This document shows positions 529 through 64,000 of a DNA stretch of 64,000 nucleotides, in pieces. Both the position numbers and the translations under genes were made by a program. How positions within the stretch are numbered: the stretch's first letter is position 1; every line of letters begins with the position of its first letter. The stretch is from a virus (lineage: Duplodnaviria; Caudoviricetes). Under the pieces are notes generated by a model, which searched no databases, had not been told where the DNA came from, and was given only the letters and a program-made list of their open reading frames with translations. The stretch lies in IMG/VR virus record IMGVR_UViG_3300025606_000003, positions 32,001 to 96,000 of that record; one strand, written 5' to 3'.

Positions 529-1809
529 CTAAAAGTTCCAGAAGTCGTCGGGCGGGGAAGCGGGGCCGGGAAACTGCTGCTCGGTTTCCACGCCTTCGCT
601 GCGCTCGGTAAGCACGGCCTCGCTGCTGTCTCCCAGGATTTCCGTTTCCCAGAAGACCGTCAGCTGGCCCGCGGCGACAACCGTGATAAATTGCGTATTC
701 GGGCCGTACTCGCCGGGCTTCTCAAAAAGCACGGCGTAATTGCCAGGATCTAATAACAGCGCGTCTGCCCAGCGCCCGTTCGCGCCAGTTGTAGTACTGG
801 CTACAGCGTTAGCTCTGGCTGGGTAGTCTGGTTGCGCGGCATCGTAGATATCTTTTGGAAACACATACACACGCGCACCCTCGACCGGATAGCCCGTCGC
901 GTCAGCGTACGCTAAATAATCCGGCGCGTTGAAGTTATGGTCTACCGGAACGATGCCGCAGCCAATTTGCGGCGGCACGGGCCCGGGACGCGAGGCTGGT
1001 TCGCCGCCAATCTCGATAGCGTAAATAGAGCTTGAGAACGGAATCAACCCCATTTGAATGTTGTAGACAAGCGGCACGCCACGCATAGCCGCCGCAACCT
1101 GAATGCTGTGTACCAACCAGCGCTCGTCGCTGGTGCCGTTTACCCAGATGTCGTTGCGGTTAATGCTCGGAAACCCAATTACGCGGGCGGTGACTTCGGC
1201 GTTCTCGCGGGTTGTGCCCTTAAGCTGACCGTCTTGCTGCTCTGTAATAGTCTGGGTTGACAAGTCCCAGCATTGCATAGCCAGCGGCGGGTGATAACCA
1301 ACCTCGAAGCTGGTGCCGTTACAGATCGGGCAATTCGAGTCCAGCACCTCGCCAGACAGCTCGTCGCGACAGCGCTTGCACGGCCGCCCGAATCGGTAGG
1401 GCTTGAGCAAAAACCCCGAAACACTAACGTACTTGTGCCGGAGCTGCTCTTTCCGGATAACTTCACGCGATAGCACCCAATCGCGCTCAGCCAGCTCCCC
1501 GAAACAGCTGACAGCTTGGCTGACATAGATATCTTTGTCGGTTGTCAGCGTAACCCGGTAATGCGTTAACAGGTCGCTGGCAGAGTTGCGCCACGCATCG
1601 TCATACGCAACGTAGCCGTCAACAATCGGGTTTCCGACGTTATGCCAGTCAGGAGAATCGCGCAGCCCGGTGTTCCCGAACTGCAGCTGAAAAATGCGCG
1701 GGCCGGGGTCGTTAAACGCTGGCTCTAGCTGCCACCAGACCCGCGTAACGCCGCGGATCATGTTGTCCACAGCGACCTGACGAAACGGAAATAAACGCGG
1801 TTGCGACAT
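529..1809 (-). CDS. Probable neck/head-closure protein with Zn-ribbon insert and C-terminal beta-sandwich
   Basis: 426 aa; CKRC...CPICNGTSFEVGY Cys cluster; DIWV..ERWLVHSI segment; lies downstream of the capsid and adaptor genes. Confidence 0.5.
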   Translation of the reverse strand: MSQPRLFPFRQVAVDNMIRGVTRVWWQLEPAFNDPGPRIFQLQFGNTGLRDSPDWHNVGNPIVDGYVAYDDAWRNSASDLLTHYRVTLTTDKDIYVSQAVSCFGELAERDWVLSREVIRKEQLRHKYVSVSGFLLKPYRFGRPCKRCRDELSGEVLDSNCPICNGTSFEVGYHPPLAMQCWDLSTQTITEQQDGQLKGTTRENAEVTARVIGFPSINRNDIWVNGTSDERWLVHSIQVAAAMRGVPLVYNIQMGLIPFSSSIYAIEIGGEPASRPGPVPPQIGCGIVPVDHNFNAPDYLAYADATGYPVEGARVYVFPKDIYDAAQPDYPARANAVASTTTGANGRWADALLLDPGNYAVLFEKPGEYGPNTQFITVVAAGQLTVFWETEILGDSSEAVLTERSEGVETEQQFPGPASPPDDFWNF

Positions 1810-1815
1810 GTTTTG

Positions 1816-1821
1816 ATTATA
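1816..1821 (-). promoter_or_regulatory. Possible -10 box (TATAAT) for a leaderless transcript
   Basis: Minus strand gcagcTATAATcaaaacATG: TATAAT 6 nt before the ATG at 1809, no SD. Confidence 0.3.
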
Positions 1822-1831
1822 GCTGCAGAGC

Positions 1832-1877
1832 GCTGATAGCTAAGAAAAAGACGCAACGAGCAGTCAGAGACTGCTCG
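1832..1877 (-). terminator. Hairpin + T-rich tract + TTAGCTATCAGC box
   Basis: 9-bp stem cgagcagtc/gactgctcg (1857-1877), then minus-strand ttgcgtctttttc-TTAGCTATCAGC. The same box ends units at 62568 and 63296 and recurs at 63985. Confidence 0.6.
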
Positions 1878-2447
1878 CTCTCGGCGCGCGTCCGCCGCAG
1901 AATGTCGTACTACAGGGCCGCCCGCCGGGGCGACGGTCTCGTATTGACTCAAACCCAATCTGGTGGGTTCCAACCTGCCGCAGACCTTGGCATGAGGTTG
2001 GCTCACGTGTTTGTTGGCACACGCTGAAGCCTGGACTGCGATGTTGCCGCCACGGTCGGGCGCTCCCCGACGCGTCCGTCGGATTGGGTTTGCGACGTGC
2101 TAGCGTTTCGCAAAACCACAACTTTCTGCCGAGGGGTACGCCCCAAGGCGAGGCTGTCGCAACAACCTCCGGTGTGCGGGTGGCAGAGCACTGTATCCCA
2201 CAGTGTTGACTTCGCTGCAGTCTTGCTGCAGCTGGCTTGGACCCTTTTTGGCTTCGACGCACTGACCAAGCAGAAGTGCGTAGGTTCCGCGACGACCTCT
2301 CGGTCGCCGGTACTTCACCGGGCGCCGGAACAGCGCTTTCGGGAAGGCCGATTTATCGGCGTCAGCAGCGACTCGGGTGCTGCCGCAGCAGCGTCGATGG
2401 CGGCGGAGTCGTTGCTATCGCCAGCCATCCAAGATAGCTATTACCCT
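1843..2447 (-). ncRNA. Candidate large structured non-coding RNA (about 600 nt)
   Basis: Intergenic tract without a credible ORF; at least 10 helices, including an 11-bp long-range helix 1950-1960/2082-2092; GAGA tetraloop on the minus strand; bounded by the conserved promoter and the terminator box. Confidence 0.65.
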
Positions 2448-2454
2448 ATCAATC

Positions 2455-2483
2455 TATATGCCCGGTTTTTGCCCAATATTTAG
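2455..2483 (-). promoter_or_regulatory. Bipartite promoter CTAAATA-N14-GGCATATA (copy 1)
   Basis: Identical boxes and 14-nt spacer length at 63253-63281 and 63929-63957. Confidence 0.7.
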
Positions 2484-3499
2484 TACCGGAGCCGGAGGCC
2501 GCTGGCGTAGGCGCTGTACTTGTAATTGCTCGTTACTTCGCCGTAGCAACCCTCAAGATTCAGGCTAGCTTTGGTAGCGCGCACCCACTCGCGGTACGCC
2601 TGCCAGCGCATTTGCCCGGCCTGCTCGTACATGGGCGCCTTGTTCTGGTCGTTGATCTGCATGCCCGCGGCGGCATACTGAAAATCATTCCGGCGGTACT
2701 GCTCGGCCACCATGAAGAACAGGTTGGCCACAATTCCTTCCAGCCAGTGATAGCGGAACGGAAAGTTTTGCGTGTTGTAGACGGCGTCAATCGGCGGCGG
2801 GATCTCGTTCCAGTACATAACCGGCCGCGCGATCGCCAGCGCAATCTCGGCGTCATCAAACATGAGGTTATCGAGCAGGTAGCTTTCGCCGGGACTTGAG
2901 TCGCGCAAATGCAGCCGGATTTCTGCGATGCTGGGCGGCCCACCGTTTTCATTGTCTGGACCGAACAGGCTGCGCGTTATGACCAGCGAGAACGTGTTAG
3001 AGAACACGACGCACGGCAGGTCTTGGCTTTCTGCGACTGTGCTAACCAGCGCCATCTCAGCGTAGTAAATACCTGGCAACTTCGTCATCTCGGCGGTCAA
3101 CTCCGCCTCAACGCGCCCTTCAGCCGCGTTTACGACCGCGGCCTCGACTTCAAATGGCGGGCGTGCATTGCCCCACGACAGTTGCTCTTTCAACCGAAGC
3201 ACGACGCGATAGTCGATTACCGTAGACGAGCTTTCTAAGTCTTCTGGAAAGCCGCACGCTTGCAGACTTACTGGGCGCCCCTCTTTGTCGTGCAGTTGCC
3301 AGGCGACTGTCGCGCACTGGCCCTGGTTCACAGCAATAGACCGCATACGCCCAAGAACAGGCGCGCCGTTTACTGTGCTGACCGAAGCGCTGAGAATGTT
3401 CTGCCCAGCGCACGACACCGGAAAAAGACCGCCGACGGTTGTAATCGGCGCGGGTGTCGGGATTACGGGCTGAGAAGCTGGCGTAGCAATCACAACCAT
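2480..3499 (-). CDS. Probable head-tail adaptor with N-terminal BppU-like Ig domain
   Basis: 339 aa; N-terminal NAAEGRVEAELT...PGIYYAEM; C-terminal EIRLHLRD...FDDAEIALAI...YWNEIPP helical domain; downstream of the capsid gene. Confidence 0.5.
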   Translation of the reverse strand: MVVIATPASQPVIPTPAPITTVGGLFPVSCAGQNILSASVSTVNGAPVLGRMRSIAVNQGQCATVAWQLHDKEGRPVSLQACGFPEDLESSSTVIDYRVVLRLKEQLSWGNARPPFEVEAAVVNAAEGRVEAELTAEMTKLPGIYYAEMALVSTVAESQDLPCVVFSNTFSLVITRSLFGPDNENGGPPSIAEIRLHLRDSSPGESYLLDNLMFDDAEIALAIARPVMYWNEIPPPIDAVYNTQNFPFRYHWLEGIVANLFFMVAEQYRRNDFQYAAAGMQINDQNKAPMYEQAGQMRWQAYREWVRATKASLNLEGCYGEVTSNYKYSAYASGLRLRY

Positions 3500-3578
3500 A
3501 TCGTCACCTCGCGCAGAAGAGCGTAGATATCACGACAACAAAAGTGATAAAGATGGCGCGCATGGCGAATACCTACGA

Positions 3579-10464: not shown

Positions 10465-11901
10465 TTACAGCAAATCTCGTTCGGTCTTCATCGTGTCCAT
10501 GCGGGCTTTCTCAGTCTCAGCTTTGGCCTTTTCCATATCAACGAGCTGTTTGATATCAAAGTCAGCCAGCTGCCCCGACTCAAGCCGCTTGCGCAGAAGT
10601 GCCTGCATTGTACCGGGAGACGAAACAAAATGCGGCGCTACGTCTGACAGATCGTTAAACGCGCTCGCAATTTCGTGCGGGTCGTAACCAGAGATTACCT
10701 GATCATTGAGCATCAGATCGTGCAGCACGCCCTGCGCCCGAATGTTGCGTAGTTCTGTTTCGTGGCTGGGGTCTGTCAGCTTGCCGTACGACTTGTTTAC
10801 CAGTTCTTTTGGCGACTGGCTCTCAGCCATACGTTTTGCAACGTTTGTAGCTGTGCCGAGGCCGCTAAGACCAAAAAGATTACCGGACGGCGGCGGCGGC
10901 GCAGGAGGGCGGTTTTTCCCGCCGCCACCTGAACGCCCGGCGCCGGACGGCGGCGGCGGCGCAGGAGGGCGGTTTTTCCCGCCGCCACCTGAACGCCCGG
11001 CGCCGGCTGGCGCAGCTGTCTTCAATGTCAGCGGCTCGTTAGCGGGGTTATACAGAATGGATTCTGTAAGAATTTCTGGTGCTTCTTTCTTAATCGCCGC
11101 TTGCTTGACGGGCACCTTGGCCTGCGCCTCGTTGTAAGCCTCCAGCGCGTTGAGCACGTTGGCCGCCAGCTTGCAGGGCTCGCAGTCGCCAATAAACACT
11201 TCTTTGGTGGCAGCCTGCTTGGTCAGATGCGGGTACACGTTGGCCAGCTTGTTGAGCACAGCGGCCCCCTCGTCGCCCAGACGGAGCTCCGTCTCGCGTA
11301 CGGCGTCCTTGAAGCTCATGTTGCCCGGGCGGCGGAAATACTCGTGCAGCTCCTCCATCGCGGCAGCAGCCTTCGAGTAGGCCACAGTCGCTTGGCGGCG
11401 CAGCTCCTCGGCAGCCAGTTCAGCCGCGCGCTTTTCGCTGGCAGCCCGCCGGACAGCCGCTTCGGGATCCCGGGGCGGCGGAGTCCAGGTTTTTTCGGGC
11501 AAAGATATCTTTGCGGCCGCGGCTTTGGTCAGCGCTGACTGCCGCCGAGCAATCAGATCACGCACCGGAATGGTGTACTCGGCCGAAACCACGTGCTGCT
11601 GCGAGATCTCAGCCGAAGTTTTTACCGCCTTCGGGTACAACCGGTCCATGACGGTATTGGCGTCAGCAATCGGAAAATCAGCGGCCTTGTCGAGCGTATT
11701 CTCGCCCTGCTCGCGCTGTTTGGTTGTTCGGCCCGTGTTATACGCGTGAACCATGAGATTCACGTGCCCGGCCGGAACATTCGACTCAGAGGCGCTTTTT
11801 ACGATTGCGTCGTCGGGCGCCATGCCGTTATTCACGTAGCCAGCCGCGCGCTCGATGGCAGCGATCAGTTTTTGCTCGGCCTCTTTAGTCAGTGGGCGCA
11901 T
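10465..11901 (-). CDS. Putative virion protein, K-x-A rich
   Basis: 478 aa helical; more than 10 K-x-A motifs; internal 20-aa duplication. Confidence 0.6.
   Translation of the reverse strand: MRPLTKEAEQKLIAAIERAAGYVNNGMAPDDAIVKSASESNVPAGHVNLMVHAYNTGRTTKQREQGENTLDKAADFPIADANTVMDRLYPKAVKTSAEISQQHVVSAEYTIPVRDLIARRQSALTKAAAAKISLPEKTWTPPPRDPEAAVRRAASEKRAAELAAEELRRQATVAYSKAAAAMEELHEYFRRPGNMSFKDAVRETELRLGDEGAAVLNKLANVYPHLTKQAATKEVFIGDCEPCKLAANVLNALEAYNEAQAKVPVKQAAIKKEAPEILTESILYNPANEPLTLKTAAPAGAGRSGGGGKNRPPAPPPPSGAGRSGGGGKNRPPAPPPPSGNLFGLSGLGTATNVAKRMAESQSPKELVNKSYGKLTDPSHETELRNIRAQGVLHDLMLNDQVISGYDPHEIASAFNDLSDVAPHFVSSPGTMQALLRKRLESGQLADFDIKQLVDMEKAKAETEKARMDTMKTERDLL
10883..11006. repeat. Exact 60-bp tandem duplication
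   Basis: ccggacggcggcggcggcgcaggagggcggtttttcccgccgccacctgaacgcccggcg x2; encodes GAGRSGGGGKNRPPAPPPPS x2. Confidence 0.95.
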
Positions 11902-15439: not shown

Positions 15440-15859
15440 TCAGCGCAGCATCGGCGTCTCAACGGTCACGGTCAGCGCGAAGTCTTTGCTGCCCGTGCCA
15501 GACGGTTTGATCCACAGGTAAAGATATCTTTGGGGATTCGTCGGCGAGCCGTCACGGTTGATGTACGCCACATTGATATTGCTGTTTTCAGCGATATCTA
15601 CAACGTCCGGGTCTTCTACAACGTCGGCAAAATCAGACAAGCTCAACACGTGAAAAGACTCGGCCGGCAAAGACGCGTTGGGCTCTGTTTCCTGGTTGCT
15701 GGCATACAGATCGGCCTCGAAACCCGCCTTGGCGCCGGTGCGCTGCACGAGCTGATAGCCGCGCAGCACGCCACGGTGCGGCATCGAGATCGGGACGATT
15801 GTCTCCGCACCGCTCGCCGCCGAAAAAGCCTTCGTACCGGACCAGATAGTGCTAGCCAT
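15440..15859 (-). CDS. Hypothetical beta-rich virion protein
   Basis: 139 aa, SD aagggtg. Confidence 0.55.
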   Translation of the reverse strand: MASTIWSGTKAFSAASGAETIVPISMPHRGVLRGYQLVQRTGAKAGFEADLYASNQETEPNASLPAESFHVLSLSDFADVVEDPDVVDIAENSNINVAYINRDGSPTNPQRYLYLWIKPSGTGSKDFALTVTVETPMLR

Positions 15860-18367: not shown

Positions 18368-20242
18368 TTATGGGCGCCATCCGCTTGTGGCGCCCGTTAC
18401 GCCAAACTGTTCGCCGCGAGCCAGCGCCGGCACAAAACTGCTGCCAGATGTGTCGCTAACTCCGCCGTGGTGTACGCTGTCGAGCAGGCCCTTTTGCTGG
18501 TAAGACCCGAGCATCCGCGTCATCCAGTCCTGGTCGTTTGAAATGTTACTCATGCCGCGAACCATTTCCGGCTGAAACGGCGGCGGCGTCCGGTGCGCTT
18601 CGATGTTATTGATTCCGTACTTCTGCAACGTATCGGTCACATTTTTGCCGATTTTTGTTCCAACAGAATAGTGCAGCACTGGGCGCTCTAAGTAATGCCC
18701 CGCCAGACTTTTTGGCGCGCCGGTCACGCTACCCGGCCGCGGCTGCCAATTTCGTTCAACCATCGAATACGGCACGATATCGTCGGGGTTGTAATCACCG
18801 TACTCGTCGGTCATTCGCACGTGGTTTACAAGCCCGCGCGCCAGCAGCTCGATATTGCGCCGCTGCGGCGTAATTCCTGAGTTCTGCATAACCTGCCGCA
18901 TAGCTGACACAAAATAGCGGCGCCCTTCGCCAACGCCCTTGTGCCGCACTATTTCGGCCGGACTGGGCATACCGTCTGACAGCACGTCGCCGGCTTCCAG
19001 CGAATCGCCTTTCTTCACGATGACTTGCCGGTCGGCCGGCACGTAATGGTCTTGGCTGTTGACCTGCACGTAAAACCCGCCCTGGGGCGCTGGTCGGATT
19101 TCTTGTACGTGCCCGTCAAACTGCGCATGTGTCGCGCCGTCCGGATATGTTTTCGGTACCTGCACAAGCGCATTGATCGCCTTAAAACCGGCGATTGAAC
19201 CGGCGCCGCCGACGCCGCCGGAGTGCTTAGAGCTAATCTGCGCCTGCGTCACGGGCTCACCTAACGCCTGCGCGGCCGCGATACCAACGTAATCGCCGAC
19301 AGGTGGTAATTTTCCTTTTTCCCGATAACCAACGTCACGCGCAAATACGCCGCCATCATCCGGGCCGCCCACCGTCGGACTGCGCACGAGAATATCTTTC
19401 ATGCCCATTTCTTTGATGTCGCGAAGAATCTTCGGCGTCAGCATCGTGTTGCGCTTGTACGGGCCGACCGGGCGCGCTAGCAGCGCGCCCTCGTTGTCAG
19501 AGTCGTCGACATCGGTCGGAAAGCCTCGGTCAACAGCGCCAGCTGCGCGCTCTTCGTCGTCATCGTCATCAGATGTAACTAGCAGCCGGTGCGTCATCTG
19601 TGAAAGCTGCTTGCTGAAAAACCCAGCGTCGGCGGTCGCTGTTTTTAGATCCATGACACCTTTACGCGTGCCGAAGGCGCCGGCGAAATATTCAACGGGC
19701 CGGAGCCCCTGACCGTAGCCGTGCAGCACCGGAATCGGAATCGGGTCGTTCTTGTGGTCGACATACTGCATGTCGGCCCCAATCAGCGAATTCAGGCTGA
19801 ACTTGTTGCCCTTGCCAACGCCGATGACCTGGTGCGCCAACGGGTTATCAAAACCTTTTGCTTCGTCGTAAACTTCGTTGACGAGCGAGCGCTGCGTGTC
19901 GCCGGCCAGCTTTAAAATTTTCAGTGTGCGCGCTTTTTCATCCAAGCTGCTGTCTGACAGAATTCCGCGCAGCTGCTGGTTAACTCTGTGTCGCGCGTTC
20001 TGGACCGCCACGGTGGCTTTGATATCTTTGAGACCGAACGACAAGCCGTTGGTGGTATAGCTGGCTTCGCGCCCCACGTCGTGCAACCGCTTCATCACGT
20101 CGCGGTATTTCTCGGGATATTTTTCAGCCAGCGTTGTCGCGAGCTGGGCCATATCTTTTTTTGTCAGCACGCGCTCGTAGTTGCGTAAGTCTTCTGGCAA
20201 CGCGGCGTTAATGAGTACTTGGCCGAGCGTAGTTTTCAGCAT
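18368..20242 (-). CDS. rpoC: DNA-directed RNA polymerase beta' subunit, C-terminal half
   Basis: TTLGQ start; GLRPVEYF..AFGTRKG...TADAGFFSKQL (bridge helix); GDYVGIAAAQALGEPVTQ..SKHSGG (trigger loop); RNIELLAR. Confidence 0.9.
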   Translation of the reverse strand: MLKTTLGQVLINAALPEDLRNYERVLTKKDMAQLATTLAEKYPEKYRDVMKRLHDVGREASYTTNGLSFGLKDIKATVAVQNARHRVNQQLRGILSDSSLDEKARTLKILKLAGDTQRSLVNEVYDEAKGFDNPLAHQVIGVGKGNKFSLNSLIGADMQYVDHKNDPIPIPVLHGYGQGLRPVEYFAGAFGTRKGVMDLKTATADAGFFSKQLSQMTHRLLVTSDDDDDEERAAGAVDRGFPTDVDDSDNEGALLARPVGPYKRNTMLTPKILRDIKEMGMKDILVRSPTVGGPDDGGVFARDVGYREKGKLPPVGDYVGIAAAQALGEPVTQAQISSKHSGGVGGAGSIAGFKAINALVQVPKTYPDGATHAQFDGHVQEIRPAPQGGFYVQVNSQDHYVPADRQVIVKKGDSLEAGDVLSDGMPSPAEIVRHKGVGEGRRYFVSAMRQVMQNSGITPQRRNIELLARGLVNHVRMTDEYGDYNPDDIVPYSMVERNWQPRPGSVTGAPKSLAGHYLERPVLHYSVGTKIGKNVTDTLQKYGINNIEAHRTPPPFQPEMVRGMSNISNDQDWMTRMLGSYQQKGLLDSVHHGGVSDTSGSSFVPALARGEQFGVTGATSGWRP

Positions 20243-21174: not shown

Positions 21175-24100
21175 TTAACTTTCGACGATGTGCACCGGGG
21201 AGTCGACGTCAAGTTCGCCCCGGCGGTAAGCGTTAATTGCGTCCTGCGTGCTGCGATATACCCTGGGCTTAGCTTTTTTATCGATGCGGCTCGAGGCAAG
21301 ATACACACCGGTCTGATAGTCCGCGTTCGGCACGTAATGCGCCTTGAAGTTGGATGTTGCAAAAAGGTTTTTGCTGGGAAGCATCTTTTCGACTGCTTCT
21401 TTTGCAGCGTCTTCTGTGCTGGGAACGTGATATTGCATCGCGTCTCCGTCAAAGTCGGCACCAAAACCTTTTGTAATGACCGGATTAACCTCCATGACCT
21501 TGTTTTTTGTAAGCTTTGGATAGAACGCCATCATACCGTATCGGTGCAGAACCGGCGCACGGTTGATAACGATAGGCCGAGACGACATCTGGGTCTCCAG
21601 CTCTGCCATCGCCTGTTTATTGCGGTCTTCGACAGCCTGCAGCGCCTGCATGCGCGGTAACCCGCGGCGCACTAGCCCGCGCACAACAAACGGCTTGTAA
21701 ACGGCCCAGGCCTTGTCTTCGGGCAGCGCGACCTCGTCCATGTTCAGGTCTGGGTTCGGCGTGATCACCGCCCGGCCCACAAGGTCAACCGTGGTGCTGA
21801 GCAACTTACGCTGCACGGTGCCGTATTTGGGCGAAGAGCCAAAAATATGGGACAAGAAGCCTTTCACGCGGCGTTCCTGGTTTTTTGGCTGCGTCGGATC
21901 GCCGAGCCCGGTCACGGCTTTCATAGTGTCGTACAGCGCCAGCCGTTCGTCGCCATAGCTTTCAAGCGCACCAGATGCCTCTTTCAAAGTGCTGTTGGCG
22001 TCCAGCAGTTCTTTGTAGAGATAGTTCGCATCGGCAACCAGGGGCAGTTTTTTATTACCCATTGTGCTGACCGGCCGGAAGAGCGGCGGCAGGACGGGCA
22101 TTTTTGTCAGCATCCAATCTTTGGGATGCACGCCGGTCTGCTCTGCGTTCTTCAAGTATCCCAACTTGCGCACCGCAGCGTCGCGCAGGGTCTTCCGGCC
22201 GGACTTGATATCTTCGCGCACCTGCTCGAGCATTTTTGGCAGGTTAATCCGAGATAGCGCGTTTTGAATCGCTTTGGGCCCAGTCTCGTCGTGGATCTTG
22301 GCTTCGCCTGCGAGCACGTTCCGGTACTCTTTTTCAGTCAGCCCAAGCACGCGACGAATAGGCTCTTCCATGACCGGATTCGGCATCGGTTCGTGCAAAG
22401 ATATCTTTGCCCACCGGTTGCCGCCGTGGCCGCCCGTAAGTTTTTCGTCGAAGAGGCCGCCAGCAATCGGCTTCAATCGGCCCTTCCAGTCGACGGTTTC
22501 AGAATTCTCGATTTCGCGACCGCCCGCCATGTCATCGACGTCTTTGTCGGTCAACGCCATGATGTGCGTCTGGCTGCCAGTGCGCACGGTGTTAATACCG
22601 GCGCCCTTCAGCTGGTTAACGAACTTTTCGTAGACGTGTGGCACCTTGGGCAACGGCGGAGTGTATCCGGCCATAAATTGCGACCAGTACTCTGGGTTTG
22701 CTTGGCCGCGCACCATCTTGGCGTCCCGGATTACTTTTCCAGCGCCGTGCGACAGTAACGCGCCAAGATCCAACATTCCGACGCGTTTAGCACCTTCGCT
22801 GCCGCCCTTGGCCGGAGTGCCTTCGGCTGTGTAACTACCCATCGCGCGGCCTTGCCCTTTGCCTTCGGCCGTGTGGTGCAGCTTCATAAAGAACCGGGAA
22901 CCGGTCAGCACGCCTTTGATCTTACGACCGGTTTCCGGATCAACTACGTCCTCGGTATCAGAGAGGCCGTGCTTCCCAAGCTCTTTTTGAGCGAAATCAA
23001 CAAGATCAACACTGCCGTCAAAGTCTTTGAGTTTGAACGGCTGACCCGTTTTGGCTGCAACTTTTCCAAGCGCGGCCTCGATCACCTGCGCGGGATTCAC
23101 GCGGCTGATAAGTCCAAGCGGGCTGACCAGCACTTCATACGGACTGCCGTCTTTATCGTGCGGCATCTGATGGTCAGGCACAATATCGGCAACAACGCCT
23201 TTGTCGCCGTATCGCCCGGTCAGCTTATCGCCAACCTGCATTTCCGCCTGTGTTTTTACGACGACCTGCACACCCTTGTTGGTATGCGCAACGTCGGTCA
23301 CGATACCGGGCGAATGATGATCCCAGGTTTCCGACTCGTTTGAGAAGTTGCCGGCACGCCCGCGGTGCACTTTGCCGTACGTTGTTTCTTTGGCCTTGGC
23401 GTGCAGGATTAGCGGATCACCGAACTGCACAACGGCGCCCTTCTTGATCGCGCCTTTGTCGTCAAAGTTATCAAGCTGCTTTTTGTCGTACTCGCCGGGA
23501 AACAACGCAATAAATGCTTTCTTGCCAGCGTGGCTCGAGTCTGTCCATTCGGCGGCATGCTGATACATGTGCTCGCTGGTCAGCTTGCGCGCTGTGCTTT
23601 GACTGATCACAACCGCGTCTTCGTAGTTCTTGCCGTGATACGGCAAATACGCCACGCGCAAATTTTTACCCAGCGCTGCAGAACCGGCCGGATCTGTAAA
23701 GTTTGAGTGCGCCAGCAGCTGCCCCGGTTGAATAACGTCGCCAGGCTGCACCGTCGGTGTTTGATGCCAAAACGTTTTCCGATTGAACGGGTGCTCGTTA
23801 TACAGATCAATATCGTGTTTGTTGCCGTCGCGATCGCGCAGCACCATTTTGCCAGGTTCAGTTGAAACAACTTGCCCGTGAAATTGCGCGCGTACAGCGC
23901 CCAGCTGCTCGCCCATTTCATCTTCGTGCGACGTGCCGTCTTTGCCGATAATAGCTGACTGCACGTGTGGCGCTTCAGGTCCAACCAGCGGCAGCGCTTG
24001 CGTGAACATGCGGCTCGCCATGATCACGCGGTGGCCCTTCATGTAAGACTTCATCGGCACCATGTTAGACAGCGCCGAAAACGTGTTGTCCATGTGCGGC

Positions 24101-30142: not shown

Positions 30143-30152
30143 CTCATAGATA

Positions 30153-30590
30153 TCAAACCTCGTCGGACGGGCGCTCGGACACCAGCGTCACGCTAAACGA
30201 GCCCGGCGTCGAGGGCCGGAGCGTGTCGGACGCCACGAACTCGACCACCGCCGGCTCCGAGTAGTTCCCGGCGTCGTCCACGTCGACCAGCGACAGCACG
30301 ACGTTCGAGTTCTGCGCAACCTCGATCGTGCCCAGATCCGTCGCCGCGCCCTCGTACGACTTCGAGCCCTCGGAAACCCCGTCTACGGTCACCGTCAGCT
30401 GCCGGGAAACCACGTCATGGTCGACCGGAGCGCCCACCGTCACCTGATACGTCAAAACATCAGCCATAGGACTTTTTCCTTTCTGGGAAACCATCAACAA
30501 CACAGGCCGCGAAACAGTTGGTCGTTTGTTGAGCCACGCGAAGCAGATAAGCAACAGCAGCGCGGCAAGAACTGTAAATAACTTAAGCAT
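30153..30590 (-). CDS. Ig/FN3-like domain protein, possibly membrane anchored
   Basis: Hydrophobic N-terminus; VDDAGNYSEP motif; possible internal start MADVL. Confidence 0.5.
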   Translation of the reverse strand: MLKLFTVLAALLLLICFAWLNKRPTVSRPVLLMVSQKGKSPMADVLTYQVTVGAPVDHDVVSRQLTVTVDGVSEGSKSYEGAATDLGTIEVAQNSNVVLSLVDVDDAGNYSEPAVVEFVASDTLRPSTPGSFSVTLVSERPSDEV

Positions 30591-37229: not shown

Positions 37230-37865
37230 TTAGCGGCAATATCGCAGGCGCTGCTCGCGCCAATATCTGGCCTGCGACGTGACCGGAATGTTGCTGTCGT
37301 CGTTGCCTTCTTGAAAACAGAGGGCGTATCGTAGCGGCATGCCCAGTGGCTGTCCATTGTGTTTGAGATAGTCGCGAGTCATCAGCACATCACAATGGTT
37401 GTAGCGCGAAATCGCGAGTAAATCCCGGCAGCCGGCTGCAGAAACCAGGTATCCGTGCGCGCCCCAGCCAGCTGAAACAATCCGCACGATGTACTTGGAA
37501 ACCGGCTCCGTGCGGGCGTGCGAACTGTGGAATTGCCAGAAGCGCCACGTTGCCGGTAACTCGGCGGCAGCGCGCGGAAAGATATCTTTGAAGTCAGATG
37601 TGAATACAACGTCATCCTCGAACACGGCAACCGTCTCGTACCCGCGCTCGAGACAGAGTTTCCAGCAATGTCGGTGGCTGTCCAAGGCGCCTGCGTGCTT
37701 GCCATCAATGCCGCCGACTGTTTTAGCCGCGTATGTAATCGCAGACACACGCTCAACTGGCCAGGCCAGCTGCTGAAACCGCGGCAGCACCGATTCCCAG
37801 CGGTCGGCGCGCCGATCCATGTTGACGCAGAGCGCTGGAATGCGCCGATAGTCTACGAGGGCCAT
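37230..37865 (-). CDS. Glycosyltransferase family 25
   Basis: CVNMDRRADRW, SHRHCW, VFEDD, AHGYLVS. Confidence 0.8.
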   Translation of the reverse strand: MALVDYRRIPALCVNMDRRADRWESVLPRFQQLAWPVERVSAITYAAKTVGGIDGKHAGALDSHRHCWKLCLERGYETVAVFEDDVVFTSDFKDIFPRAAAELPATWRFWQFHSSHARTEPVSKYIVRIVSAGWGAHGYLVSAAGCRDLLAISRYNHCDVLMTRDYLKHNGQPLGMPLRYALCFQEGNDDSNIPVTSQARYWREQRLRYCR

Positions 37866-40044: not shown

Positions 40045-40159
40045 GATGTGCGCCCGTTTTTGCCAGTCGGTCATTGATATCTATCCGACGCCAACGGCCG
40101 CCAGATCTACAGCGGTTTTAGCAAAAACAGGTAACGTCTCACAAACTGCGGGAGCATCA

Positions 40160-43912: not shown

Positions 43913-44350
43913 TTACAGGCCCGCCAAAAGCTGGCGAATCCGCTCGCCGTCTTCGTAGCTGTCTTGGAGCTGGGCTTCGTAGAACACTTTCATGTACGCT
44001 GCCGCACTGCGATCACTGTTGGCGTATTCGTCAAGCCACTCCAGCCGCGCGGCGTAATTCTCAACGACCTCGCCCTCGATAGCCGCCGCATACCGCAGAA
44101 TGTCTTCTACATTCTCGAGCCGCTTGAACTCGTTGGCGCCTGGCCAGACGATTCCGCCCAGGCCGTAAATACGGTCCTGGAATGCCAACACATGCTCGAG
44201 CTCGCCCTTGGCCGCCTCGTGCAGAAACTCCCTATACTCGGCGGCGTGCAGCCCGGTTACGGCGCTGGCGTGGTACAGATAAAAATCCAGGTGCATGCGC
44301 TCGTTGCGCAGGTCAGAGTTCAACAAAGATATCAATTCGTCTCGAGTCAT
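43913..44350 (-). CDS. Ferritin-like diiron protein
   Basis: 145 aa; E...Y..H, E..ELEH, IEGEVVENY four-helix-bundle pattern. Confidence 0.7.
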   Translation of the reverse strand: MTRDELISLLNSDLRNERMHLDFYLYHASAVTGLHAAEYREFLHEAAKGELEHVLAFQDRIYGLGGIVWPGANEFKRLENVEDILRYAAAIEGEVVENYAARLEWLDEYANSDRSAAAYMKVFYEAQLQDSYEDGERIRQLLAGL

Positions 44351-44969: not shown

Positions 44970-45149
44970 TTAAGCGCGGAAAGATATCTTTCCGCAGCAT
45001 CCCGGCACCTCGGCTGTCCGATGAGGTGCAATCGCGACCCGGTTCGAGAAGTCGCGCACGCAGGTGATTTTCTTACGTTCGCGCAGCGGCTGGTAGCTGG
45101 ACGCTAGCCGCGGCAAACAGCAAGCCGCCTCCCTGCGACTCTCCCGCAT
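44970..45149 (-). CDS. Possible small ORF (59 aa)
   Basis: SD aaggag before the ATG, downstream of a sigma70-like promoter; composition not diagnostic. Confidence 0.3.
   Translation of the reverse strand: MRESRREAACCLPRLASSYQPLRERKKITCVRDFSNRVAIAPHRTAEVPGCCGKISFRA
44976..44995. repeat. Perfect 20-bp palindrome GCGGAAAGATATCTTTCCGC
   Basis: Self-complementary; longest perfect member of the WWGATATCWW family seen. Confidence 0.9.
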
Positions 45150-46630: not shown

Positions 46631-46703
46631 GATTTTTCCCAGCTAGCAGTGCAGCACAGCAATCCGAAGCCAAAGATATCAATGTGCGTGGTGCGTGCGC
46701 CGC

Positions 46704-52651: not shown

Positions 52652-55600
52652 CTAAATTCGCGATTTGTTAGCGGCTAGATATGCAGCCGCCGCGCCTAAA
52701 CCGCCGCCGCCTAGAACGCTGCTCCAGTACAGCAGCGGATTTGTGTCTTTTTTGTTGCGGGTCAGATAGTGCCCCAAAGCTGCGCCGGCCGCGGTGCCGC
52801 CGGTGGTATATCCGATATGCTTGAGTTTGTCCCGGAAATTGATCAGCGCCTCAGCCTTGGGCAGGTAATTCCCGGTTTGATCTGCGTAACCGGGGCCCGG
52901 ATTCTCCGCCTCGAGCCGGAATTGCTGCTGGTCAGTCGGCAAAGACTTGTAAAAGTCTTCCATGAGCTTGACCTGCTCTTCATGCGGCATGAACCGGGTA
53001 GTAACCTCAAACGGATTGATCCGCTGGCCGGCGCGCTGAGCCACGAAATCCTCTAGCTTGCGGCCCATCCAGTCGCTGTAACGCGTGCCCGGCGGCGCCA
53101 GCGTTTCCGGTACAGCCCTGTCAGAGAGCCGCGCCTTGAGCTGGTGCATGTAAGCTGCTACCGGGCCGCGCGAGAACATTTCGTAATGCGCCATACCGCC
53201 TACGCCCCGCTGCTCGGCAGGCGTTTTCAGCAAATACGGCTCTGTGCCAAGCCGTTTCATCAAAGTCGGCGAGCTGCGCAGCTTGACCAGTAACTCGCCG
53301 ACAGGGATACCAAACGGCTTGAGCTGCGCGCCGGGGCTGAGCGTTTTCTGGTAATAGGTCAAGCCAGTGTAGTTCGGCGGCGGCGTGTTGTTTCGAAACA
53401 CGTTCGGGTCGTAGTTTTTGACAGCGGCGCGCACCCGGGCAACCTGCTCGTCGCTCGCAATACCGTAAGCACCGCCAACGCCAAGTTTGCCGGCCAATCC
53501 CAACGCCGGAATCATCCACGGAAGCTTCGCAGGTAACTTCGCAGGTAACTTCGCCGGGGTTTTCTTGTCGTCTGGCGAAGTCGCGTCGGACTTAGTTTTG
53601 GGCTTATGCTCAGGCTTGTCTGTGATTTTTGCCGTTTTTTGCTGCGTGCCAATCTCGCGCAGCAGCTGCCGAAACTGCTCGTTGAGATGTTCTTTTGTGC
53701 TGGCCAGATGCTGGATTACCTCATCGCCGGTGCGCTGCCGCCGCTGGCCAGTGAGCTTGCCGAGTAGCCCGGGCTCTTCGCTGCGAGATAGATATCTTTG
53801 CACGGCGACGTTCTTGAGCTCTTCCGGTAAACCATCGTGCGAATCAAATCTGAGGCCGCGACCCTGGGCTTGTTGCAGTCTGGCTTCGTTCCAGTACGGG
53901 TCGAGCAGCTGGATCAGGCTTGTACCCTTGGTACTCAAACCCTCGGCGCCAGCCGGGCCGATCAGCAGCGCCCGGAGTTTGCCCGCGTTATAGTCAGCCA
54001 AGGCCTGCTGACGTTGCTTGGTCGAGATACCGCCGTGGAAAATACCGTACGGAATTTTGTTCTCGGCCAGCCCAGCAGCATACGGACTCAAACCGGCGTC
54101 TACGAAGTTCGAGTAAATAATGGCCTTCTTGCGCTCGTCTGAGTTTAACGTCTCGCGCAGCCGCTTGAAGGCCTCCTGCAGCTTCGCAGATTGCTGGAAG
54201 GCCTTTAGCGGGCTCTTGTCGGCCCGGAACGGCTGCGTAGACAGAGATACCTGCCGCATGCCGGTCATGAAGCTGTTCAGCTTGGCCAGTTCTTCGCGGC
54301 TGAGGGGGAACTCTTGATCTAGCTTCCAGAGAAACCCAGGCGGTATCTTGGTCCGGATAGCTTTCTGAATACGCTGTTGCTCGGCGCTCAGCGGCACAGA
54401 CACAGTCTCTTCGTTGATATTCACGCCGGTGGGCGCTTTGCTGGGCTGGTAATCAATATGGCCCTCGAGCAGCTTGCGCAGTTTGGGGCCGTTCTTCATG
54501 ATCGGCGTCACACCGGTGCCGGCGCCGTGCAGAAAGCCCCAGAAGCTCGGCCAAACCTTCTTTTCGCCGATGAAGTCTTTGTCGAACTGCGCAGGGTCAT
54601 ACTTCTCGTTCCGAACAATAGATATCAAACTGGCCAGGTCTTTTGGCTCGTTCGTAATCGGCGTGCCAGTGAGCAGCATCACTCGTTTGGCGAGGCCGGC
54701 GTTTTGCAGGGCGGCTCTGCTCATGGCCGCGTCTGGATTGCGCAGCCGCGCGGCCTCGTCCATGATGAGCGTGTCAGGCTGCTTCTGGAATTTCTTGCCC
54801 ATTCCGAGCCCGGTGTAGCTCATGACTTCCGGATGACTATCAGTGAACTTCTTGATTTCTTTCTGAAAGTTCCCGCGCAGGCTGGCCGGCGCAACAATGC
54901 CGTAGCTGCTGCCGTCGAGCTTTTTGGCGGCTTCTGCTGCAGCAATCGCCGAGAGAGATTTTCCTGAACCTAGACCGTGATACACGATCATCCGGGGATC
55001 TTCGCCAGAAACCCGGTCAGCAATACGTTGCTGGTGTTCTTGTAGCTGGATTTCGGGCAGCAAAGCAGCTTGTTTACCCAGGCCCTGCACGTACTTCTGC
55101 ATGGCTTTGCGCTGGTGCTCGTCCAGCATCTCTACTACACCGTTTTGCGCCTCGTTAGGGACCATTTTTGCAGGGTCGATCGCCCAGTTGCGCAGCGCCC
55201 AGCCCCGCCGTGGCGTTGGGTTCTTGGCAAACGAACTGCCGTGCCGGGCTTTGAAGCTCAGCCAGCGCTTGATCTGCCGCGCGTCTTCATCTGGAATTCT
55301 GCGCCCAGAAGCATAGCGCTTGTACCACTGCGCCCAGCCTTTGGGATCATGCTCAGAGATCCACTCGGGCTTCCACTCGCCTAGACTGGCCAGTCTGGGA
55401 CCCTGCCCTCGGTACAGCGCGTCATACACGCCTAGGTTTTCAAGCTGCTCTGGCGTGTAGTCTGGCGTAAAGTCGGCAGCAAGCTTCGCCCACGCCCGGC
55501 CAGCTGCAACAGCTGCGCTATTTTTTTGCCGCGGCGGGAGGTTGTTGTAATACCCCTCCGATCCCGGCAGCGCTTCACCCGTAAAACCGTGATCATACAC

Positions 55601-57010: not shown

Positions 57011-57076
57011 ACGGGCATCCTTGCCGAGAGCCAATAGATATCTTTGCGCGCAGCTCAGCGCGCAAGAGCTCTGTTA

Positions 57077-60636: not shown

Positions 60637-60671
60637 GGTTAGATATCCCGGTTAGATATCAATTAGATATC
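60637..60671. repeat. Three tandem TTAGATATC sites
   Basis: ggTTAGATATCccggTTAGATATCaaTTAGATATC in the intergenic gap. Confidence 0.9.
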
Positions 60672-62514
60672 AGTGTTCGATCTCAGCGCCGTGGGCCGTT
60701 GAACCTAACCCGGCGCCAAAGCCGTTACTGTGCGCCATCGCGTGCTCAAGGCCGTGCAACACCGGGTGCGCAACGGTGTGCGCGGCTTCATATGGCAGCG
60801 CGAGACTGTGCGGCAGTAAATTAGTTGGGTTGCCGGTGTTCGCAAAATTAGTCGGGCCGTTCAACGGGTGGCCGATAGCATCTGCGCCAAGATTGCGCGC
60901 CGCCTGCTCAATCGGCGCGCCAATGTTATGCTCATAGGCGCGCCATAGATTCTGCGCAGTTTCTGGGACTGCTCGCTGGATCTGTTTGCCAAGCTGGGTT
61001 TTCATGTCGCCAAACCGAGCAGCCGTGTTAAGCTGCGCGTCGCTAAGCCGCAGCGCTGTTTGATGGCCGAACTGTGACAGGTTTCCTGCATACCGGGAAA
61101 ACGTCGGGAGCATTTGTTGCACGCGCGGGTTTGCAGCTGCCGCGCCCAGTGCGCCGGCAGCCGTTGTGCCGGCTTGCGCAGCTGTGGTGCCGCCAGCAGC
61201 AGCAACAGCCGGAGCAGCCGCAGCTGCGCCGGCCACAGCCGGAATTGCTGCAGCAGCTCCGGCGCCCACACCCAGGGCGCCCTGCCCAATCCGCATGTTT
61301 TGGGCTTCTCGCGGATCTGTTACTTGCTGGCTTGTATTTGGGTTGTACCAGCGACTCAGCGTGTCTTGATAGCCGGCCCGGCCGAACAACCCGCCGATTT
61401 GCTTTGGCATCAGCGCGTCTGTGCCAGCAGCCGAGCGGTTTGGAGTTAGGCCTGTCGGTGCAGCCTGCTGTGGGGCCGCGCCAGTAGTTACCAGCGGCGA
61501 TTGGGCTGGCTGCAAAGCTGGCGGTGAGCTTGGCGGCGAGCTCAGCGGTTGCGGTTTAGGCGGCGCCAGCGACGTGGCCGACGTGACAGGCGTAAACTGC
61601 CCAGGAGCTTTGCCGGCTGCCGGGCCGGGCCTATTCAGCGACAGCGTGCCAGACGTTGAAGTTTGGTTTCCTGGTTGTGAATACGGCGCGAACTCTTGGG
61701 CCAACTTTAACCGCACAAGTTTGCCGAACTGATATGGCTGCATATCGTCAGCTGTCTTTACAGCCCCGGCAATCTTCGAGCTATCCGGCGAGTTCTTTGC
61801 GCCGAATGCAGCGTTGCCGTTGAGCTGGCCCTTGTTGCCCAGGGCGCCGAAAGCCTGAATCGGATTGTGCTGCGGATTGGAGCCCCCACCGACAGGCCCG
61901 GCAGGCTGTGTGTTTGCGGGATGCTGCGCAGCCGGTTGAGCAGCAGCATTTCCAGCGGGGGGCGCCATCCCCATCGGCAGCGGAATCATCGGCGCCGGCA
62001 TGGACATGCGCTTTAAAAGCATGTTTTGCGGCACGAAACGCGGGTCGCGGCCTTCCTGTCCAGCATGATGCGCCTCCATCATTTCGCGCAACGGCTTCGC
62101 AAGAACTACGGCTAATTTACCGAAAATGGCTTCGACAGAGTTGGAGCTGTGATTTTTGCCGTCTGGGCTCGAGTTATGTGTTTCGTCCTGTTTTGGCTGG
62201 ATTTCTGTACTGTCCTGGCCTGCGTAAGTCGGTTTGTCGTTCTGTGGCATCTTGACTTGCACCATCCCAGAGTTGGCTTGCTTTATCTCGTTGCCCAGTA
62301 TAGAGTTACGCTCAGTTTTTTTGGCGTTAGCAAAAACTGATAAAACGTTATCAAGTACGGCCAGCGCGGCGGCCTTCTCTTTGGATTCTGGTTCTTGCTT
62401 ATTTGCGTACATAGGCAGCTTCTTTTGGTTCGGGTATTCGTGCGCCCAGCGTTTGGCAATATCCGGATGTGCCGCCCAAAGAAAACGGCGCTGTTTTTCG
62501 GATTTAAACGGCAT
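60670..62514 (-). CDS. Low-complexity modular putative virion protein with MPFKS..QRR N-domain
   Basis: MPFKSEKQRRFLWAAHPDIAKRW; EKAAA, IKQAN, SKIAG, VKTAD, YQFGKLVRLKLA. Confidence 0.65.
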   Translation of the reverse strand: MPFKSEKQRRFLWAAHPDIAKRWAHEYPNQKKLPMYANKQEPESKEKAAALAVLDNVLSVFANAKKTERNSILGNEIKQANSGMVQVKMPQNDKPTYAGQDSTEIQPKQDETHNSSPDGKNHSSNSVEAIFGKLAVVLAKPLREMMEAHHAGQEGRDPRFVPQNMLLKRMSMPAPMIPLPMGMAPPAGNAAAQPAAQHPANTQPAGPVGGGSNPQHNPIQAFGALGNKGQLNGNAAFGAKNSPDSSKIAGAVKTADDMQPYQFGKLVRLKLAQEFAPYSQPGNQTSTSGTLSLNRPGPAAGKAPGQFTPVTSATSLAPPKPQPLSSPPSSPPALQPAQSPLVTTGAAPQQAAPTGLTPNRSAAGTDALMPKQIGGLFGRAGYQDTLSRWYNPNTSQQVTDPREAQNMRIGQGALGVGAGAAAAIPAVAGAAAAAPAVAAAGGTTAAQAGTTAAGALGAAAANPRVQQMLPTFSRYAGNLSQFGHQTALRLSDAQLNTAARFGDMKTQLGKQIQRAVPETAQNLWRAYEHNIGAPIEQAARNLGADAIGHPLNGPTNFANTGNPTNLLPHSLALPYEAAHTVAHPVLHGLEHAMAHSNGFGAGLGSTAHGAEIEH

Positions 62515-63246: not shown

Positions 63247-63252
63247 ACATTT

Positions 63253-63281
63253 TATATGCCGTGTTTTTGGCCTGTATTTAG
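63253..63281 (-). promoter_or_regulatory. Bipartite promoter CTAAATA-N14-GGCATATA (copy 2)
   Basis: Exact boxes and spacer length shared with copies 1 and 3. Confidence 0.7.
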
Positions 63282-63295
63282 CTTGCAGCAAAACA

Positions 63296-63345
63296 GCTGA
63301 TAGCTAAGAGAAACCGAGCACGCGGAGCCCGTAGGCCCCGCTGCT
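63296..63345 (-). terminator. Hairpin + tttctc + TTAGCTATCAGC box
   Basis: gcggggcc-tacg-ggctccgc stem extended by agca/tgct, then the box. Confidence 0.6.
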
Positions 63346-63367
63346 GGTTTCCCCTGGCGCCGGTGGC

Positions 63368-63835
63368 TCAGACTGCCGAGCCGCAGCCGGTTGCGCAGGG
63401 CGCGCCCGGCGCGGCGACCTGCTGGTGGCCGCACCAGGTGCAGTTCACCAGCCGCTCGGTCTGGCTCTTCCGCGCGGCATCCAGCTGCTTGCGCAGCTTG
63501 AGGATCTCCGCGTCCCTTGCTCGAACTGTTCGCCACAGCGCAGCGGTCTCCGTCACCGGCGCGCTGTGATCGAATTGCCGCCACTCGCGGAGCTGGCGGG
63601 CCGCGTAGTCAACCGCTGTGACTACGCTGACAAACATTACGCCGCTGGCGAGCGCGGCCGTCGTCGCCAGGGCGGCGACAACCGGCCAGTGGGGCAGGTC
63701 GAGCACCGTCACTTTGGCGGCGGCCAGCACCGCGTCGAACGCGGTGAACGTGGCGGCGCCGGCGACCACGGTTGTGGCCGCCATGAGGACCAACCCGGCG
63801 GCCAGCCAAAACACGAACTTGACGAAATCGACCAT
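63368..63835 (-). CDS. Membrane protein with coiled coil and C-terminal Zn ribbon
   Basis: 155 aa, SD aaggagg; two hydrophobic segments; CTWCG...CATGC. Confidence 0.65.
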   Translation of the reverse strand: MVDFVKFVFWLAAGLVLMAATTVVAGAATFTAFDAVLAAAKVTVLDLPHWPVVAALATTAALASGVMFVSVVTAVDYAARQLREWRQFDHSAPVTETAALWRTVRARDAEILKLRKQLDAARKSQTERLVNCTWCGHQQVAAPGAPCATGCGSAV

Positions 63836-63928
63836 GATTGCCTCCTTTGGGCAACCCAGGAGTCTGCCTGAGACAGGAGTTCACCGGCGGCCAACGTACA
63901 TACGCCGACACTTACGGATTCCTCAATA

Positions 63929-63957
63929 TATATGCCCGCGAAACACCCGGTATTTAG
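63929..63957 (-). promoter_or_regulatory. Bipartite promoter CTAAATA-N14-GGCATATA (copy 3)
   Basis: Exact boxes and spacer length shared with copies 1 and 2. Confidence 0.7.
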
Positions 63958-63961
63958 CCTT

Positions 63962-64000
63962 CGGGTTTGATATCTAACCCGGGCGCTGATAGCTAAGAGA
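63962..64000. promoter_or_regulatory. Palindrome CGGGTT-t-GATATC-t-AACCCG and TTAGCTATCAGC box just upstream of promoter copy 3
   Basis: Read directly: palindrome 63962-63981, box 63985-64000. Confidence 0.6.

Follow-up and report, generated by a model that had tools for sequence, protein, structure and literature searches.

A GATATC-centred palindrome is maintained at even spacing, and with lineage-specific flanks, across the genomes of a phage family from freshwater metagenomes

Why does one palindrome, WWGATATCWW (W, A or T), recur inside and between the genes of a virus whose DNA is rich in G+C? The question is raised by a window of 64,000 nucleotides (nt) with a G+C content of 55-61%, which comprises bases 32001-96000 of one 107,035-bp virus contig (G000, 52% complete). 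Gene calling placed 115 genes on this contig; they occupy 92% of its length, and all but six (109) are on the minus strand. The gene content, which includes RNA polymerase, a tail-tip protein, an SNF2 helicase and glycosyltransferases, identified it as a phage. The palindrome was followed through whole records of its relatives, namely G001, G003 and G004 (partial), G002 (197 kb, 96% complete), G005 (200 kb, 98% complete), G006, G007 and G031. The genomes G000, G001, G003, G004 and G031 carry one version of the palindrome and are referred to as A-type, whereas the sister lineage G002 carries another.

An earlier note, made from the letters of this window, had counted about 32 copies of GATATC and about 20 of WWGATATCWW, and had estimated that base composition should yield fewer than one of the latter. 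Both counts proved correct, with 20 core starts exactly as listed there. Dinucleotide-preserving shuffles gave 5.24 ± 2.24 hexamers (maximum 11) and 0.24 ± 0.47 of the flanked 10-mer (maximum 2), in agreement with the estimate. AAAGATATCTTT is present five times in the window, as the note had also stated, and eight times in the 107-kb contig, of which it is the most over-represented 12-mer. The contig as a whole holds 54 copies of GATATC, 29 with W flanks, and motif-derived 10-mers head its 10-mer enrichment list. The note had named a codon- and amino-acid-preserving null as the test that could overturn the enrichment, and the enrichment persisted under it. When synonymous codons were shuffled inside each gene, keeping every protein and the per-gene codon usage, the coding DNA of the contig contained 1.23 ± 1.14 W-flanked sites (maximum 6) against 20 observed, and 0.07 copies of AAAGATATCTTT against 7 observed; shuffling the order of codons left 0.52 W-flanked sites. 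An excess over codon-aware nulls was also seen in the relatives G002, G004 and G005. These shuffles rule out a codon or amino-acid artefact.

The W-flanked copies occur in all three reading frames (9, 4 and 7 in frames 0, 1 and 2 of the contig) and between genes. In frames 1 and 2 they require the rare codons AGA (3% of Arg codons) and ATA (4% of Ile codons), so that the earlier argument against a mere Asp-Ile codon effect holds. All 19 coding copies of GATATC without W flanks are frame-0 Asp-Ile pairs, and about 16 are expected under the null. Since flanked sites use every frame and the bare hexamer stays at the null level, the selected unit is the flanked word and not GATATC. Specifically, it is the 14-mer S-A-W-A-GATATC-T-W-T-S (S, G or C; 14-18 bp in all), and not the hexamer itself, as an EcoRV-type target of a type II restriction-modification system would require.

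This 14-mer is the consensus of the A-type genomes, and motif-rich genomes carry 29-52 W-flanked sites each. (We write the A-type duplex as GCAAAGATATCTTTGC and the T-type duplex of the sister lineage as CTCATTGATATCAATGAG.) The consensus is symmetric to ±4 in this genome and to ±7 in G002. Mirror positions in the flanks were complementary in 96, 79 and 101 of 139 cases each, compared with expectations of 98.6, 69.4 and 92.9. Agreement this close to independence indicates that the two halves behave as independent copies of one half-site, a pattern typical of duplex DNA read by a symmetric dimer and not of a hairpin. Perfect 12-mers are more frequent than forms with one mismatch (14:7, 24:5 and 26:5); nearly all mismatches are A/T swaps in the flanks, which leaves GATATC itself essentially invariant. 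No directional signal is present in the flanks, even though 95% of the genes lie on one strand.

Conservation in relatives, a check that the earlier note had called for, was found far beyond the neutral expectation. Of the alignable sites, 10/15, 12/17, 10/16 and 10/14 were kept in four A-type relatives at a flank identity of 72-73%, about 15 times the 0.6-0.7 sites expected from neutral decay. Individual sites (Table 1) illustrate what is being kept. At 11500-11513, around 20 nt are identical in G031, G001, G003 and G004 against a background identity of ~72%, and G002 and L006 encode a different peptide there. At 15519-15532, L004 encodes the same Q-R-Y-L-Y by other codons, CAACGTTACTTG, which places the constraint on the DNA and not on the protein. 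Sites are also gained. The copy at 22396-22409 is found only in this genome, L004 and G031, the others reading AGCAAGATCACGCT (K-I-T-L); as K-I-T-L stands in place of K-I-S-L with no indel, this site was gained by substitutions. The copy at 20017-20030 is not kept in the A-type genome G031, and reads GATATT in G005-G007. Orthologues with and without a site are equal in length, which rules out a mobile mini-element or insertion and means that sites arise by substitution. A recombination or mosaic-junction signal was likewise ruled out, as the ends of collinear blocks lie no nearer to sites than random gene boundaries do.

G002 and the A-type relatives are equally close to this genome (82% in beta-prime for G002). 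The sites of G002 have the 18-bp consensus CTCAWTGATATCAWTGAG, i.e., CTCAWT-GATATC-AWTGAG, and the genome contains TTGATATCAA 21 times and AWAGATATCTWT only once. The flank difference is present in intergenic sites as well and is therefore not due to coding constraint. Of the 16 sites that could be aligned between this genome and G002, just two are preserved in the latter, most of whose sites lie elsewhere. A flank conversion can be seen at a shared position, where GGAAAGATATCTTTCC here corresponds to GGTTTGATATCAAATC in G002 inside a ~87%-identical non-coding block, and further conversions were found at G002 36430 and 194277 in comparison with G004. A few A-type sites are also present in the outgroup G005, which suggests that the version in G002 is the derived one. 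Beyond the motif-rich genomes the enrichment fades: it is weak in G005 and G006 and at background level in G007-G010, and no iterated palindrome was found in G007. Other enriched 8-mers of distant relatives (AAAGAAGC, GCAATTGC and TTTAAACG) were mostly one-strand or in-frame codon effects and were set aside; CGTTTAAACG is partly palindromic in L015. In IMG/VR, the records with more than one copy of the exact 16-mer all belong to this phage family, and so does the one motif-rich record among the four checked for the 18-mer. Single 16- and 18-mer matches occur on many unrelated IMG/VR contigs.

Sites occur once per 3.6-4.9 kb, about one per four genes, and are spaced more evenly than random placement would give. 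In six motif-rich genomes the coefficient of variation of the spacing was 0.58-0.77 vs. ~0.96 for random positions (P=0.0065 in G002 with its own site set; 0.60, P<0.0002 in the complete G031), and the largest gaps between sites were 9-13 kb. Between 27 and 40% of the sites touch intergenic DNA, which makes up 7-10% of the sequence; for AT-rich control words the corresponding figure was 13-32%. In G002 the intergenic sites adjoin the upstream stop codon, and the TGA of the site is sometimes the stop itself.

Taken together, the symmetric consensus, the independent halves, the strict core, the conservation, the even spacing and the flank switch are best fitted by an array of homodimer sites. 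Our leading reading, which we hold tentatively, is that these are the sites of a sequence-specific homodimeric DNA-binding protein, probably encoded by the phage, that organises or punctuates its co-directional genome. The dimeric-protein site proposed in the earlier note thus stands as the best-supported explanation, albeit with no reader protein identified; nothing points specifically to the packaging or segregation roles offered with it. Each subunit of the symmetric dimer would read one half-site, S-A-W-A-G-A-T in this lineage, and some 30-50 copies would be maintained over a ~200-kb genome, about one every 3.6 kb, as landing pads organising or punctuating a genome with nearly all genes on one strand. 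They might act as roadblocks or insulators between transcription units, or as anchors for DNA compaction or folding. Because the base beside GATATC switches from A to T and the sites relocate in the sister lineage, the reader is probably phage-encoded and co-evolving with them.

Several observations weigh against this proposal. No reader was found in the phage gene content: Pfam and PHROG scans of ~200 proteins of the 96%-complete G002 and of 31 clade-specific genes returned no convincing DNA-binding domain and no repressor-like protein, although orphan proteins remain, and ParB (PF02195) was absent from G000-G004. Two screens, one for genes that motif-rich genomes have and G005-G007 lack, the other for genes that are conserved within the A-type group but have diverged in G002, both yielded glycosyl-, methyl- and sulfo-transferase-type genes or orphans, again with no DNA-binding domain. 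The motif-poor relatives share almost all core genes, and consequently no gene is obviously tied to the motif. Finally, 60-70% of the sites lie within genes, where they are distributed uniformly and do not favour the ends; operators are not usually placed in this way. One early helix-turn-helix-like protein, encoded behind a promoter-like element (G002 95871-96422), was considered as the reader and set aside, as it diverges equally between two genomes with the same motif.

A more far-reaching form of the dimer proposal, which we think unlikely, would make the array a viral "chromosome code". An unrecognised phage dimer on pads placed every ~3.6 kb would fold, insulate or position the replicating genome, maybe together with a Volactin-type filament, and reader and pads would co-evolve until sister lineages shared no sites. 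Were this true, the phage could distinguish its DNA from host DNA and from the DNA of relatives infecting the same cell.

Given that the phage encodes a fused beta/beta-prime protein and a separate beta-prime C-terminal part, the palindrome might instead be the promoter, or promoter core, of this multisubunit RNA polymerase, spaced like T7 promoters. Sigma-70-like promoters and intrinsic terminators were not above shuffle level, and the palindrome is the sole recurrent upstream motif besides ribosome-binding sites and about five CTAAAT..GGCATAT elements. It also forms an AT-rich island in GC-rich DNA, with operon-like spacing, and the most frequent position relative to the nearest start codon is -20 to -60. 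Phage promoters, however, are directional and lie at a fixed short distance upstream of genes, and these sites do not. They have full dyad symmetry and non-directional flanks on a genome with 95% of its genes on one strand; the intragenic majority is uniformly distributed, many sites being >300 nt from the next start; and, compared with AT-rich control words, they are weakly enriched near starts. The family also has a separate promoter-like motif that is clearly asymmetric, and one palindrome ends in a start codon. We therefore regard a promoter as an unlikely identity for the palindrome. A hairpin in single-stranded nucleic acid, acting in RNA processing, stability or termination or as a priming or replication signal in single-stranded DNA, is very unlikely. 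It is true that all sites are transcribed in one direction, that a conserved copy sits at a hairpin tip within a structured non-coding element, that intergenic copies closely follow stop codons, and that the spacing is of the order of Okazaki fragments. Against this, the arms lack covariation and their mirror pairing is at chance level, the common forms CAATGATATCAATG and AAAGATATCTAT would hold A-A or T-T mismatches, and the stems would consist of 5-7 AT-rich pairs with no U-tract; it is the sequence that is conserved, and not merely the pairing.

The modification site that the earlier note gave as its alternative corresponds to a HIP1-type word, which would either be recognised by an enzyme that modifies DNA or result from biased repair, linked to modification, that turns near-matches into matches, and would not be a binding array with a function of its own. 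The resemblance is real in that an iterated palindrome is kept inside genes against codon preference and conserved between genomes, like HIP1 (PMC5861425), and is replaced by an alternate word in the sister lineage, like Elhai's alternate HIPs (PMC4390886). Perfect sites far exceed near-matches, as repair drive would also give, and the genes of the motif-rich clade and the most diverged genes are glycosyl- and methyl-transferases. These enzymes nevertheless look like sugar or glycan enzymes (GT8, GT25, Methyltransf_24/CmcI-like). The DNA methyltransferase families PF02086 (D12), PF01555 (N6_N4), PF00145 (C5) and PF02384 (N6_Mtase), as well as Vsr and PurZ, were found in none of five phage genomes, among them one that is 96% complete, in searches that gave matches in named control genomes. 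As the bare hexamer is not enriched, 14-18 bp exceeds the usual methyltransferase site and drive does not predict even spacing, we consider this explanation quite unlikely; gene content lends the modification site no support, though a modifying enzyme might belong to the host or be of a new kind. Roughly the same low probability attaches to binding by a host protein, nucleoid-associated or regulatory, with the flank switch reflecting a switch of host. Such a protein would account for the missing phage-encoded reader and would speak against the part of the dimer proposal that assigns the reader to the phage. Whether the host chromosome has a similar bias, the other refuting condition named in the earlier note, could be addressed only weakly, through an unclassified metagenome bin that holds a contig of this phage family and whose link to the host is weak. 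Against a host protein, WWGATATCWW occurs just once per 20-190 kb in this bin and 15 of its relatives, a density some 6- to 50-fold below the one per 3.6 kb of the phage, and repeated copies of the extended words were found in no other IMG/VR record, single matches aside. Least probable of all, and remote in our judgement, are sites cut or nicked by a phage endonuclease (cf. the localized single-strand interruptions of T5 and Pseudomonas phage tf), with the breaks initiating recombination-dependent replication or late transcription. In favour are the large number, strict definition and even distribution of the sites, and the RecA-like, SbcC-like, HNH and PD-(D/E)XK-type (DUF1016) proteins that the family encodes. 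Known nick motifs, by contrast, are asymmetric and on one strand, whereas a dimer acting on a symmetric site would cut both strands and so fragment the genome; moreover, assemblies are continuous through all sites, and the sites do not coincide with synteny breakpoints.

Table 1. Palindromic sites and other features of the window (CDS, coding sequence; aa, amino acids; gene strands in brackets)
Feature	Position	Strand	Setting	Remarks
Palindrome, gene-strand AAAAGATATCTACG	843..856		CDS 529-1809(-), frame 0	kept in G001, G003, G004; absent at the same place in G002
Palindrome CAAAGATATCTATG	1524..1537		CDS 529-1809(-), frame 0	kept in G031, G001, G004
Promoter-like element, further copy	~2456-2483	-		
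Palindrome CTTTGATATCAAAC	10548..10561		CDS 10465-11901(-), frame 0	this genome only; relatives with GAC/GTC variants
Palindrome CAAAGATATCTTTG	11500..11513		CDS 10465-11901(-), frame 2	K-I-S-L, rare ATA codon
Palindrome CAAAGATATCTTTA	15519..15532		CDS 15440-15859(-), frame 1	Q-R-Y-L, rare AGA codon
RNA polymerase beta-prime C-terminal gene	18368-20242	-		separate, 624 aa
Palindrome CAAAGATATCAAAG	20017..20030		beta-prime C-terminal gene 18368-20242(-), frame 0	kept in G001, G003, G004, G002
Fused RNA polymerase beta/beta-prime gene	21175-26583	-		1802 aa; beta domains and N-terminal beta-prime domains
Palindrome CGAAGATATCAAGT	22203..22216		fused beta/beta-prime gene 21175-26583(-), frame 0	
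Palindrome CAAAGATATCTTTG	22396..22409		fused beta/beta-prime gene 21175-26583(-), frame 2	
Palindrome GTTTGATATCTATG	30145..30158		its TGA is the stop codon of gene 30153-30590(-)	
Palindrome CTTAGATATCAATG	34137..34150		5' end of gene 33124-34164(-)	
Palindrome CAAAGATATCTTTC	37577..37590		CDS 37230-37865(-), frame 0	
Volactin-family actin-like protein gene	38677-39708	-		Pfam PF25216, E ~1e-62
Small-protein gene	39712-40074	-	precedes the actin-like gene	
Palindrome GATAGATATCAATG	40072..40085		intergenic, ahead of the actin-like gene	terminal ATG is the start codon of gene 39712-40074(-)
Sugar-modifying genes	41418-43352	-		
Palindrome AATTGATATCTTTG	44324..44337		5' end of gene 43913-44350(-)	
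Conserved non-coding element, ~190 nt	~44848-45058	-	between the PhoH-like gene and gene 44347-44829	carries one palindrome
Palindrome GAAAGATATCTTTC	44979..44992		hairpin tip in the conserved non-coding element	all A-type genomes; absent from the same element in G005
Palindrome CATTGATATCTTTG	46671..46684		intergenic, 45 nt before gene 45992-46630(-)	
SNF2-helicase gene	52652-57010	-		
Palindrome CAAAGATATCTATC	53787..53800		SNF2-helicase gene 52652-57010(-), frame 1	kept in G031, G001, G005
Palindrome GTTTGATATCTATT	54617..54630		SNF2-helicase gene 52652-57010(-), frame 2	
Palindrome CAAAGATATCTATT	57033..57046		intergenic, 27 nt before the SNF2-helicase gene	
Three GATATCTAA units	60642..60674	-	between genes 60670-62514(-) and 59082-60611(-)	cores 60642, 60655, 60666
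Promoter-like element, further copy	~63254-63281	-		
Promoter-like element CTAAAT-N15/16-GGCATAT	63930..63957	-		asymmetric, separate motif
Palindrome GTTAGATATCAAAC	63965..63978		intergenic, 7 nt upstream of the promoter-like element	

Three intergenic features of the window merit separate description. The GATATCTAA units stand in tandem, spaced by 11 and 13 bp, and the middle one alone is W-flanked to the left and right. No cluster of this type was found in the five relatives scanned (G001-G005); a cooperative operator and an iteron-like element are both possible identities for it. The CTAAAT..GGCATAT element, with ~5 copies per genome, is conserved in G000-G005, always on the gene strand in AT-rich gaps and sometimes after a conserved TTAGCTATCAGC box, and is probably one promoter class of this phage family. 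In G002 a palindrome lies 9-30 nt upstream of three of five such elements, and the same layout is seen in the window at 63930-63978. The conserved non-coding element is ~87% identical between genomes that are ~70% identical elsewhere, contains two to three predicted hairpins with compensatory changes and ends in a T-run. It has no match in Rfam, and Rfam and tRNA scans of the whole window found nothing; we consider it a candidate phage small RNA.

Protein searches placed Salmonella phage Arash and Vibrio phages D69/D181 as the nearest phage records, with a polymerase identity of only ~31-33%, and IMG/VR holds 21 relatives with a beta-prime identity of 64-82%. The family consists of uncultured lake phages; the holders of this DNA are freshwater metagenome contigs only, and no RNA holder is listed among them. 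The genome G031 (203,910 bp, 100% complete, 73-bp terminal overlap) has 237 gene calls, 227 of them on one strand, and is a better family reference than the half-complete contig that holds the window. The split of the RNA polymerase is unusual, and the fused gene encodes 1457 aa in G002. The contig also encodes a PhoH-like protein and an actin-like protein, the latter 76-91% identical in every family member, the motif-poor G007 included. The small-protein gene always precedes the actin-like gene, and its product has a conserved C-terminal ...KLAQLKG motif and an N-terminal hydrophobic helix that, judged by eye, appears to be a membrane anchor; a role as DNA adaptor is unlikely given this apparent anchor.

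The first 100 kb of G002 (L022-L026) encode CsrA, thymidine and thymidylate kinases, a dCMP deaminase, a UDG-superfamily protein and a T4 endonuclease V-like glycosylase, along with the N-domain of a MazZ-like dATP/dGTP diphosphohydrolase without PurZ. The family is also rich in sugar-modifying genes, in the window (Table 1) and at 116-131 kb of G002 (L027-L028). They include a double Mannosyl_trans3/GT8 gene, GT25, GT9 and GT8 fused to Methyltransf_24, as well as sulfotransferases, a nucleotide-sugar epimerase/dehydratase and a heptose kinase/adenylyltransferase. Several of these are limited to the motif-rich clade and differ more than any other genes between genomes with the one and the other version of the motif. 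Their target may be the virion, the host envelope or DNA.

Few signs of a genome-wide DNA-reading system are as clear as iterated words maintained within genes, and for most such words, HIP1 and the Cluster O repeats among them, a known function is lacking. This phage family offers a natural experiment: the complete sister genomes G031 and G002 carry different versions of one word at mostly different places, and motif-poor relatives with the same gene set add to it. If the array organises or insulates a 200-kb co-directional genome with its own polymerase, it would represent a new layer of phage genome architecture.

Among replicon-wide arrays with known readers, the sites of SlmA, Noc and MatP and the IncP KorB operators are palindromes of 12-16 bp, present in tens of copies, mostly intragenic and read by dimers whose action extends to the entire replicon and is not confined to a single promoter. 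Those arrays are regionally biased and their readers are encoded proteins of the TetR, ParB and ribbon-helix-helix families; the array described here covers the whole genome evenly, in phages where ParB is absent (G000-G004). HIP1 offers another likeness, with palindromes kept in genes by selection, conserved between genomes and without a demonstrated function, another palindrome replacing the word in some lineages, and a non-random large-scale distribution (PMC5861425, PMC4390886). The cyanobacterial word is 8 bp long and GC-rich, occurs about once per gene and contains the site of genome-encoded orphan methyltransferases, whereas the word here is 14-18 bp long and AT-rich and occurs about once per four genes. 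Over-representation and conservation are thus found in both, while an encoded methyltransferase (in five phage genomes) and a density of one per gene are not found here.

The stoperators of Cluster A mycobacteriophages, bound by L5 gp71-type repressors (PMC9283540, PMC6550527), likewise consist of tens of copies of a 13-14-bp word over a phage genome (here 29-52), many of them at gene junctions, with lineage-specific variants that co-evolve with the reader, and they provide a plausible model of sites that block an elongating polymerase. A stoperator is an asymmetric word that follows the direction of transcription and is recognised by a monomer, and it belongs to temperate phages with an identifiable repressor (PMC9283540). 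The sites here, by contrast, are palindromic and mostly intragenic, in phages with their own RNA polymerase and no repressor identified.

The closest precedent comes from Cluster O mycobacteriophages, whose 17-bp dyad repeats read TGTTCGG-N3-CCGAACA (PMC4351075, PMC6439249). In Corndog the repeat occurs 34 times, 14 intergenic, 10 near 5' ends and 10 internal, and its function is given there as unknown (PMC4351075). In both systems more than 30 near-invariant palindromes are spread genome-wide over intergenic, 5'-proximal and internal positions with no orientation to transcription, and neither has a known reader or function. The word, the phage and the host are unrelated, and the density here is about half, one per 3.6 kb vs. 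~1 per 2 kb. Even spacing and a flank-switched sister version, which are features of the palindrome described here, are not mentioned for the Cluster O repeats in the passages drawn on here.

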